A stretch of DNA of 64,000 bases from a virus, in IMG/VR virus record IMGVR_UViG_3300032315_000647, positions 32,001-96,000 of that record. One strand, written 5' to 3'. The translations under genes and the position numbers were made by a program. Positions within the stretch are counted from its first letter, which is position 1. Every line of letters starts with the position of its first letter. Positions 61,806-61,881 of this stretch are shown piece by piece. The notes under the pieces are model-generated. The model did no database searches. It saw nothing but the letters and a program-made list of their open reading frames with translations, and was not told the DNA's origin.

Positions 61806-61841
61806 TAAAATAAAACTCCCCAGGGTAGAAACCCCAGGGAG
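61806..61841 (-). terminator. intrinsic terminator
   Basis: CUCCCUGGGG-UUUCUA-CCCUGGGGAG followed by UUUUAUUUU. Confidence 0.75.
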
Positions 61842-61869
61842 AAACTCTGAAAACCAACAAACAGAGTTT
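61842..61869 (-). ncRNA. hairpin displaying UUUGUUGGUUUU loop (candidate 3'-UTR sRNA)
   Basis: perfect 8-bp stem AAACUCUG/CAGAGUUU, 12-nt loop complementary to AAAACCAACAAA. Confidence 0.45.
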
Positions 61870-61881
61870 TTATATTTTATT

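Follow-up and report, generated by a model that had tools for sequence, protein, structure and literature searches.

Introduction

Bacteroidota initiate translation without Shine-Dalgarno pairing, and their post-transcriptional control is barely charted. In enterobacteria, small RNAs of the CpxQ, SroC and DapZ type share the terminator of the parental mRNA and carry a conserved seed just upstream of it; they are Hfq- and RNase E-dependent, and their seeds are usually linear single strands. Phage-made RNAs also block ribosome access on phage or host messages by pairing, as is the case for C4 of P1/P7, OOP of lambda, Sar of P22 and the prophage RNA DicF, and C4 RNA acts in trans on short complementary sites near the start region. 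To our knowledge, no RNA of this latter type has been described for Crassvirales or for initiation without Shine-Dalgarno sequences, and we know of none that targets a leader word in ~10% of its phage's genes. We are likewise aware of no regulatory RNA with an assigned function in crAss-like phages, among which phi14:2 is the only one known to us to have a transcriptome. Literature searches on the leader motif described below and on crAss-like small RNAs found nothing relevant.

By phylum, the closest described system is GibS, a small RNA of Bacteroides thetaiotaomicron that pairs with translation-initiation regions lacking Shine-Dalgarno sequences (Ryan et al. 2020, PMC7366714). GibS is chromosomal, intergenic and ~145 nt long, with a long 5' seed and two validated targets, and acts without Hfq (PMC7366714). 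Candidates for 3'-UTR-derived small RNAs have been reported in the same bacterium (PMC7366714). In the Cellulophaga phage phi14:2, a middle promoter, P075, was mapped experimentally before the phosphoesterase gene g075 (10.1101/2020.03.07.982082), and abundant long non-coding RNAs of unknown function were detected (Drobysheva et al., 10.1101/2020.03.07.982082).

Here we analyse a hairpin element lying at the end of a block of capsid and tail genes in a phage genome, together with a word, AAACCAA, that recurs before start codons of the same phage and is complementary to the hairpin loop. The window, i.e. the whole stretch of 64,000 nucleotides that was analysed, covers bases 32001-96000 of a virus record that is complete, has terminal repeats and measures 114.7 kb.

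Genomic setting of the element

Matches to PHROG families were obtained for the portal, TerL and major head protein, the portal being 25-28% identical to Crassvirales portals. In order, the matches were terminase, portal, major head protein, tail genes, the hairpin element, a 416-aa phosphoesterase-like gene, virion proteins and a run of giant virion proteins. Gene order and the homology of portal, TerL and major head protein assign the phage to Crassvirales as a distant member; no close cultured relative was found. Gene starts were taken from a simple ORF caller of our own, and the minus strand is the coding strand for everything from ~16.8 kb to the window end. The host can be judged from two features, the TTTG / TAnnTTTG promoters and the leaders without Shine-Dalgarno sequences, and these suggest Bacteroidota. 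An "uncultured Aquiluna" MAG was considered as a host clue and rejected, its 3.6-kb contig CAYXWU010000086.1 being probably a mis-binned phage fragment; this contig encodes a copy of the phage's Dps-like protein (73% identical).

The element and its surroundings comprise the following features, listed in the direction of transcription.

61882..62979, minus strand: 365-aa Thr-rich gene, last of the late capsid/tail block, no family match; the hairpin element is its 3' UTR
61870..61881, minus strand: A-rich tract 5' of hairpin 1, a conserved A run with A7-A9 invariant in the alignment
61869-61862, minus strand: hairpin 1, 5' arm AAACUCUG (fold and covariation)
61861-61850, minus strand: hairpin 1 loop UUUGUUGGUUUU, 12 nt, the proposed seed, complementary to AAAACCAACAAA
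61849-61842, minus strand: hairpin 1, 3' arm CAGAGUUU (fold and covariation)
61841-61816, minus strand: hairpin 2, CUCCCUGGGG-uuucua-CCCUGGGGAG, with two G.U pairs, abutting hairpin 1
61815-61806, minus strand: U-tract UUUUAUUUUA after hairpin 2
61806..61841, minus strand: hairpin 2 and U-tract together, the intrinsic terminator that closes the late operon (terminator scan and covariation)
61805-61791 and 61783-61769, minus strand: two TAAC-N7-GTTA palindromes, 22 bp centre to centre, context outside the RNA
61762-59 and 61737-30, minus strand: Bacteroidota-type promoter, -33 TTTG and -7 TATCTTTA respectively, serving the 416-aa phosphoesterase-like gene at 60451-61701

The TAA stop of ORF 61882-62979 occupies 61884-61882 on the minus strand, and the element follows directly 3' of this ORF. 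Because a separate promoter region lies past the terminator and the gene order is as in phi14:2, we take the element to mark the 3' end of the late capsid/tail transcription unit. No promoter was found within ~500 nt upstream of the hairpin (to 62400).

For the 365-aa protein no relative was found in IMG/VR. Across 80 related loci the coding sequence upstream of the element was unrelated, and the conservation boundary fell exactly at the A-tract; the hypervariable 365-aa gene is probably a swappable host-range cassette, with the element as its recombination joint.

On the other side of the terminator (61730-61805, minus strand), the palindromes are followed by a conserved TTGGAAAATAT block and a TAnnTTTA -7 box, all ahead of the 416-aa gene, of whose product more distant homologues exist. 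A similar layout of palindromes and promoter stands before an 865-aa gene (46284-46370, minus strand). The palindrome cores were kept in 80/80 related loci and the spacers vary. The region has the appearance of a regulated (middle) promoter that is specific to the phage and has tandem dimer operators. A relationship between the TTGGTTA words in these palindromes and the hairpin loop was considered and rejected, the conserved part there being TAAC/GTTA only.

Structure and conservation of the hairpin element

The folding energy of the region was -32.2 kcal/mol (z = -3.9), and none of 200 shuffles folded as well. An unpaired probability above 0.9 was predicted for every base of the hairpin 1 loop. 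The terminator scan called hairpin 2 only, with 11 pairs (7 of them G-C) and the U-tract. Hairpin 1 itself lacks the marks of an intrinsic terminator: only three of its eight pairs are G-C, its loop has 12 nt and no U-tract follows on the sense strand. An earlier note on this DNA, made from the sequence, had described an 8-bp stem, a loop and an adjoining terminator on the minus strand, and coordinates, fold and terminator scan bear out that description exactly. The A-tract is able to pair with the 3' U-tract, which makes it a possible processing site. The Rfam 15 scan of the region gave no family match (best 19.5 bits against a threshold of 45, E = 0.76), and blastn with the locus found no match among GenBank phages.

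The element was present in every examined relative having the region, in 39 distinct hairpin versions, and 80/80 IMG/VR loci encoding a 71-79% identical phosphoesterase carried it. Among 37 distinct close-family sequences, the loop was invariant but for one G4->A; in the same sequences 95% of the cells were paired and seven pairs had changed on both sides, a result that 0/500 shuffles equalled and that collapsed in slid controls. Distant genomes, reached via the 338-aa gene described below, had the same loop on entirely different stems, e.g. AGUUCUCU/AGAGAACU and UCAGUAGG/CUUACUGA; their proteins were on average ~57-62% identical and their phosphoesterase 63-64% identical. The pooled set of 39 distinct hairpins contained 20 different inner 5-bp stems and three loop versions only, UUUGUUGGUUUU in 29, UUUAUUGGUUUU in 7 and a shortened UUGUUGGUUU in 3. 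Conservation of the loop with covariation of the stem had been proposed in the earlier note as a check of its reading, and across the 39 hairpins the loop was invariant, apart from the versions just given, on a covarying stem. Eighteen of the 302 stem pairs were G.U, where the other strand would have A.C; these pairs work only on the sense strand, and therefore the structure is one of the sense RNA, neither of duplex DNA nor of an antisense transcript.

By pattern and by covariance model, each genome yielded a single copy, which invariably closes the late block. The covariance-model search R1 returned no second copy, its weaker matches being hairpin-2-like terminators without hairpin 1, and the loop 12-mer occurs once in the 114.7-kb genome. 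In the IMG/VR 16-mer scan all matches with a stem of at least 7 bp were the same element in the same context; matches outside the family had no stem, lay in coding sequence and were set aside as chance. A G7->A loop, the change expected to match AAAACUAA leaders, did not occur among the 101 matches listed, nor did C or U occupy loop position 4 in any of the 119 matches listed. That a single copy was visible had led the earlier note to allow for chance; the single copy is confirmed, and the doubt is now answered by conservation across relatives, on which a chance origin of the hairpin element is excluded.

Could hairpin 1 then be part of an ordinary tandem or bidirectional terminator, adding efficiency or 3' stability, with a loop whose conservation and complementarity have no function? 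The A-tract before and the U-tract after the hairpin pair are arranged as in bidirectional terminators, and hairpin-2-like terminators recur in these genomes. However, terminator loops drift, as does that of hairpin 2, whose loop varies in the alignment, whereas the hairpin 1 loop is fixed across 20 stems; a poor terminator would be expected from an AU-rich stem of 8 bp that bears a 12-nt loop and is not followed by its own U-tract, and the other hairpin-2-like terminators stand without hairpin 1. We give this explanation only a slight chance.

Just before the window, at 31419-31493 of the full record on the plus strand, a terminator with a stem near-identical to hairpin 2 variants (CCCCTGGTGTGTCTACACTGGGG) follows a 643-aa gene, with orthologous sites in relatives G001-G003. 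Judging from these stems, one terminator design is reused by these phages.

Genomes with A at loop position 4, among them G021, are called "A-loop" here and those with G "G-loop". In the A-loop clade of G008, G013 and G014, the phosphoesterase gene is absent, and hairpin and terminator are followed by a different gene, whose product begins MSTLRKLV. The element stays at the late-block end even where the downstream module is exchanged in this manner.

The AAACCAA leader motif

AAACCAA was found within 35 nt before 12/137 predicted starts of this genome, against 1.26 expected; these 12 leader copies are part of 52 genome-wide. In ten related genomes it was present in 83/1227 leaders against 12.9 expected, and the antisense word in 6. 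It was the commonest A5C2 permutation in the leaders of three of four genomes, and orthologous leaders keep it while their flanks diverge. The distance to ATG is variable (0-25 nt). In some leaders a short UTR opens with the word, which then follows a TAnnTTTG box by a few bases; other copies lie at junctions inside operons, often without a promoter. The strict sense orientation and the variable spacing point to a signal at the RNA level. The following leaders of the window carry it.

10243..10249, minus strand: leader of the 338-aa gene 9215-10231 (phrog_4417), AAACCAA; the most conserved predicted target, 11 pairs with the loop, 10-12 in relatives
18137..18143, minus strand: leader of the 271-aa sulfotransferase gene 17317-18132, AAACCAA(C); nine Watson-Crick pairs with the loop
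19025..19031, minus strand: leader of the 293-aa gene 18133-19014, AAACCAA(U)
3320..3326, plus strand: leader of the 116-aa RyR-domain gene 3335-3685, AAACCAA(U)
3670..3676, plus strand: leader of the 100-aa gene 3682-3984, AAACCAA
7917..7923, minus strand: leader of the 81-aa gene 7659-7904, AAACCAA, kept in orthologs
8643..8649, minus strand: leader of the 134-aa Dps-like gene 8233-8637, AAACCAA
12781..12787, plus strand: short 5' UTR of the 1140-aa gene 12794-16216, AAACCAA, just downstream of a TACCTTTG -7 box

The leaders that the earlier note had quoted, AAAACCAAC before 18132 and AAAACCAAAC before 8637 and 12794, are indeed present, and the co-occurrence of hairpin and AAACCAA leaders that it had proposed to look for was found in relatives, where the leaders are conserved. 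Best kept is the leader in front of the 338-aa gene, for which 80 loci yielded 66 distinct upstream regions; every one reads AACCAA[C/T], 0-5 A-rich bases, ACTACAT and ATG, and further upstream they differ. The motif of the sulfotransferase leader is kept in G002 and G003, the two of three compared relatives that have the ortholog.

The tagged genes are a mixed group, including those for the 338-aa protein, the sulfotransferase, the Dps-like protein, a RecE-like exonuclease and the multi-domain 1140-aa enzyme as well as 322-aa and 421-aa genes, which flank the major head protein in the capsid module; they form no coherent functional or temporal class.

A bipartite leader, AAACCAA followed after 0 to 14 nt by AACTACAT and ATG, is common to the 338-aa, 322-aa and 421-aa genes (10232-10260, minus strand, and outside the window, at 100041-100070 and 103061-103090 of the full record). 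Conservation of its second block, ACTACAT next to ATG, equals that of the first (66/66 of the 338-aa leaders), and no complement of this second block was seen in the hairpin region.

AAACCAA may serve translation in the host phylum generally and owe its conservation to something other than the loop; a similar leader word, AAAACTAA, exists in phi14:2. This A/C-rich word was found in 14/112 leaders of phi14:2 against 2.6 expected.

Complementarity and co-variation of loop and leaders

The hairpin 1 loop is the complement of AAAACCAACAAA, and complementarity of the 338-aa leader to the loop reaches 12/12 in many relatives. This leader was among the ten best predicted targets in 4/4 genomes, and the sulfotransferase leader in all three genomes having the gene. 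When the real loop was placed among the 220 permutations of U9G3 by pairing with leaders, it ranked 9th, 1st, 47th and 10th in four genomes; the ranking is only moderately significant, and not so in G003 (47/220), and we regard it as suggestive but not decisive. With many A-U pairs and energies of about -10 to -12 kcal/mol, the predicted duplexes are weak. In many motif leaders the pairing spans 7-8 nt only, and AACCAAA leaders mismatch loop G4. Target leaders were not significantly structured in the fold test, and the idea of a kissing loop, with the sulfotransferase start in a hairpin loop, was dropped (fold z = -0.8).

In the predicted duplex, loop position 4 faces the base after AACCAA in the leaders. 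For the 338-aa leader in 33 genomes, a G-loop was accompanied by C in 25 cases and by U in 4, and an A-loop by U in 4 and by C in none. The empty combination, A-loop with C, is the one forbidden by pairing, since G pairs with C or U and A only with U. Fisher's test gave p = 0.0017 for this table, which is not corrected for phylogeny and concerns one loop position in 2-4 lineages. Over all leaders, the base in question was T in 9/12 (G013) and 4/7 (G021) against 22/78 in G-loop genomes (p = 0.0027, uncorrected). This T bias was specific to leaders: it was absent at non-leader copies in G013 (p = 0.010), and it was absent in G-loop genomes (p = 1). There are exceptions to the co-variation, for the A-loop genome G008 keeps two AACCAAC leaders and G021 one. 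At least three or four different stems carry the G4->A loop. Of the A-loop lineages, two have whole-genome data, and their distances from G-loop genomes are about equal; independence of these two lineages is plausible rather than proven.

The main rival to base pairing is a protein-recognised hairpin, in which the loop would be the binding site of a phage or host protein (an RRM-type or other single-strand RNA binder, a boxB/N-like antiterminator or a 3'-end endoribonuclease) and its complementarity to leaders would be incidental. A fixed loop, here of 12 nt, on a stem free to vary would also be expected of a protein-recognised hairpin, GU-rich single strands are typical RRM ligands, and a hairpin placed immediately before a terminator and a separately promoted operon would be sensible for regulated read-through. 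Compared with nut/boxB-type sites, the hairpin with its conserved loop and the position upstream of a terminator fit, and no boxA-like conserved linear element was visible in the alignment of the element. Protein recognition leaves unexplained, however, why the loop complements exactly the leader word that is most enriched and occurs in sense only, and why the G4->A loop goes with U-rich leaders. We therefore consider it unlikely, though still to be taken seriously.

Recognition at the DNA level would also yield the observed co-variation. Here one protein would bind AAAACCAAY at gene starts and, inverted, between the hairpin arms, the co-variation being a shift of its specificity, and palindromic operator-like sites do lie just downstream. 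The leader motif, however, is strictly sense (83 vs 6 antisense), stands at a variable distance from ATG and often inside operons without a promoter; the covarying arms with G.U pairs indicate a single-stranded, sense-RNA structure, and the operator half-sites TAAC/GTTA are unrelated to the loop. All this makes a DNA site most improbable.

Alternatively, the pairing could be real and act in cis, the hairpin contacting leaders of its own mRNA (those of the 421-aa and 322-aa genes) or, upon read-through, the AAC(C/U)AAA in the 5' UTR of the next gene. Upstream of the hairpin, its own late block does contain two motif leaders, the conserved 5' UTR of the downstream gene begins UUUUAAC(C/U)AAA in most relatives, and the stretch of ~500 nt without a promoter would suit a hairpin that stays on its mRNA. 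The best-conserved and longest complementarities, however, belong to the 338-aa and sulfotransferase genes, which lie in other transcription units at a distance of ~45-50 kb; in the window the downstream leader has only ~6 nt of pairing, and the downstream gene differs in the A-loop clade. Action in cis appears quite improbable to us.

Proposed function

We favour, with slightly more belief than doubt, the reading that hairpin 1 is a base-pairing "anti-leader", whose seed loop, situated at the 3' terminus of the late operon, pairs with AAACCAAY leaders. Transcripts of the late structural operon would end at hairpin 2 and would thus carry hairpin 1 just before their 3' end. The 8-bp hairpin would expose the 12-nt U/G loop as an antisense seed, which would pair with (A)AAACCAA[C/U](AAA) at 0-25 nt upstream of the start codon in a subset of phage mRNAs without Shine-Dalgarno sequences; the best-conserved partners would be the 338-aa gene, the sulfotransferase and the capsid-module genes. 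At high levels of late transcription, this pairing would change the access of ribosomes to the mRNA or the stability of the mRNA. That such pairing takes place in vivo is our inference, and the RNA may be released as a short stable 3'-UTR-derived small RNA or may act within the long mRNA. Pairing next to a start codon usually results in repression, and our default guess for the direction of the effect is repression of translation initiation.

These results change the role that the earlier note had seen in the locus. Its proposal that the RNA pairs with translation-initiation regions is favoured by the invariant loop on its covarying stem, the conserved leaders and the joint change of the G4->A loop and the leaders. 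"Master" is too strong a word for this RNA, since the share of leaders that are tagged is small (~7-10%), few of them with complementarity of at least 10 nt. A switch of translation from enzymes to structural proteins, as had been suggested, does not agree with the tagged set, which includes the 322-aa and 421-aa genes of the capsid module as well as enzymes.

A related and rather doubtful possibility, to which we assign a small probability, is that AAACCAA(Y) is a ribosome-recruiting leader of a host without Shine-Dalgarno sequences, copied by the phage, and that the loop is a bulk diffusible anti-leader titrating phage and host messages. If true, this would amount to RNA-based, motif-defined reprogramming of translation, including host shut-off.

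Under the favoured reading, pairing of the seed loop with a subset of leaders, the locus offers a compact testable pair, an invariant 12-nt loop present once per genome and the conserved AAACCAAY leaders of defined genes, in a clade with hundreds of metagenomic members (~330 family contigs), whose natural G4->A variants resemble a compensatory-mutation experiment. If the pairing is real, it would give a first handle on translation timing in these abundant phages and would identify a leader element relevant to initiation without Shine-Dalgarno sequences.

Comparison with known systems

The phage phi14:2 resembles the present one in its late capsid/tail block, followed by a promoter and then by a block of phosphoesterase, virion protein and virion RNA polymerase genes, and the promoter at 61730-61805 is the counterpart of its P075. 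In phi14:2 no hairpin or terminator was found before g075, nor any hairpin with a loop complementary to its leader word together with a terminator. In its non-coding RNAs the leader word stands in sense rather than antisense orientation; a long intergenic region at ~3550-3900, reported to be highly transcribed rightward, holds tandem sense copies (CTTAAAACTAAAG repeats), and the abundant non-coding RNA of phi14:2 may carry decoy leader motifs.

The phage-made RNAs C4, OOP, Sar and DicF belong to different hosts and differ in sequence from the element. Its proposed mode of action is that of base-pairing small RNAs which occlude translation-initiation regions. In layout, the element is of the 3'-UTR-derived type represented by CpxQ, SroC and DapZ, lacking a dedicated promoter within the ~500 nt upstream.

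With GibS, the element shares the presumed host phylum, a conserved, putative single-stranded seed and, as proposed targets, start regions without Shine-Dalgarno sequences, and there is no sequence or Rfam relationship between the two. The element differs from GibS in being phage-encoded, in presenting its putative seed in a hairpin loop at the 3' end of an operon and in being directed, as we propose, at a short motif present in many leaders.
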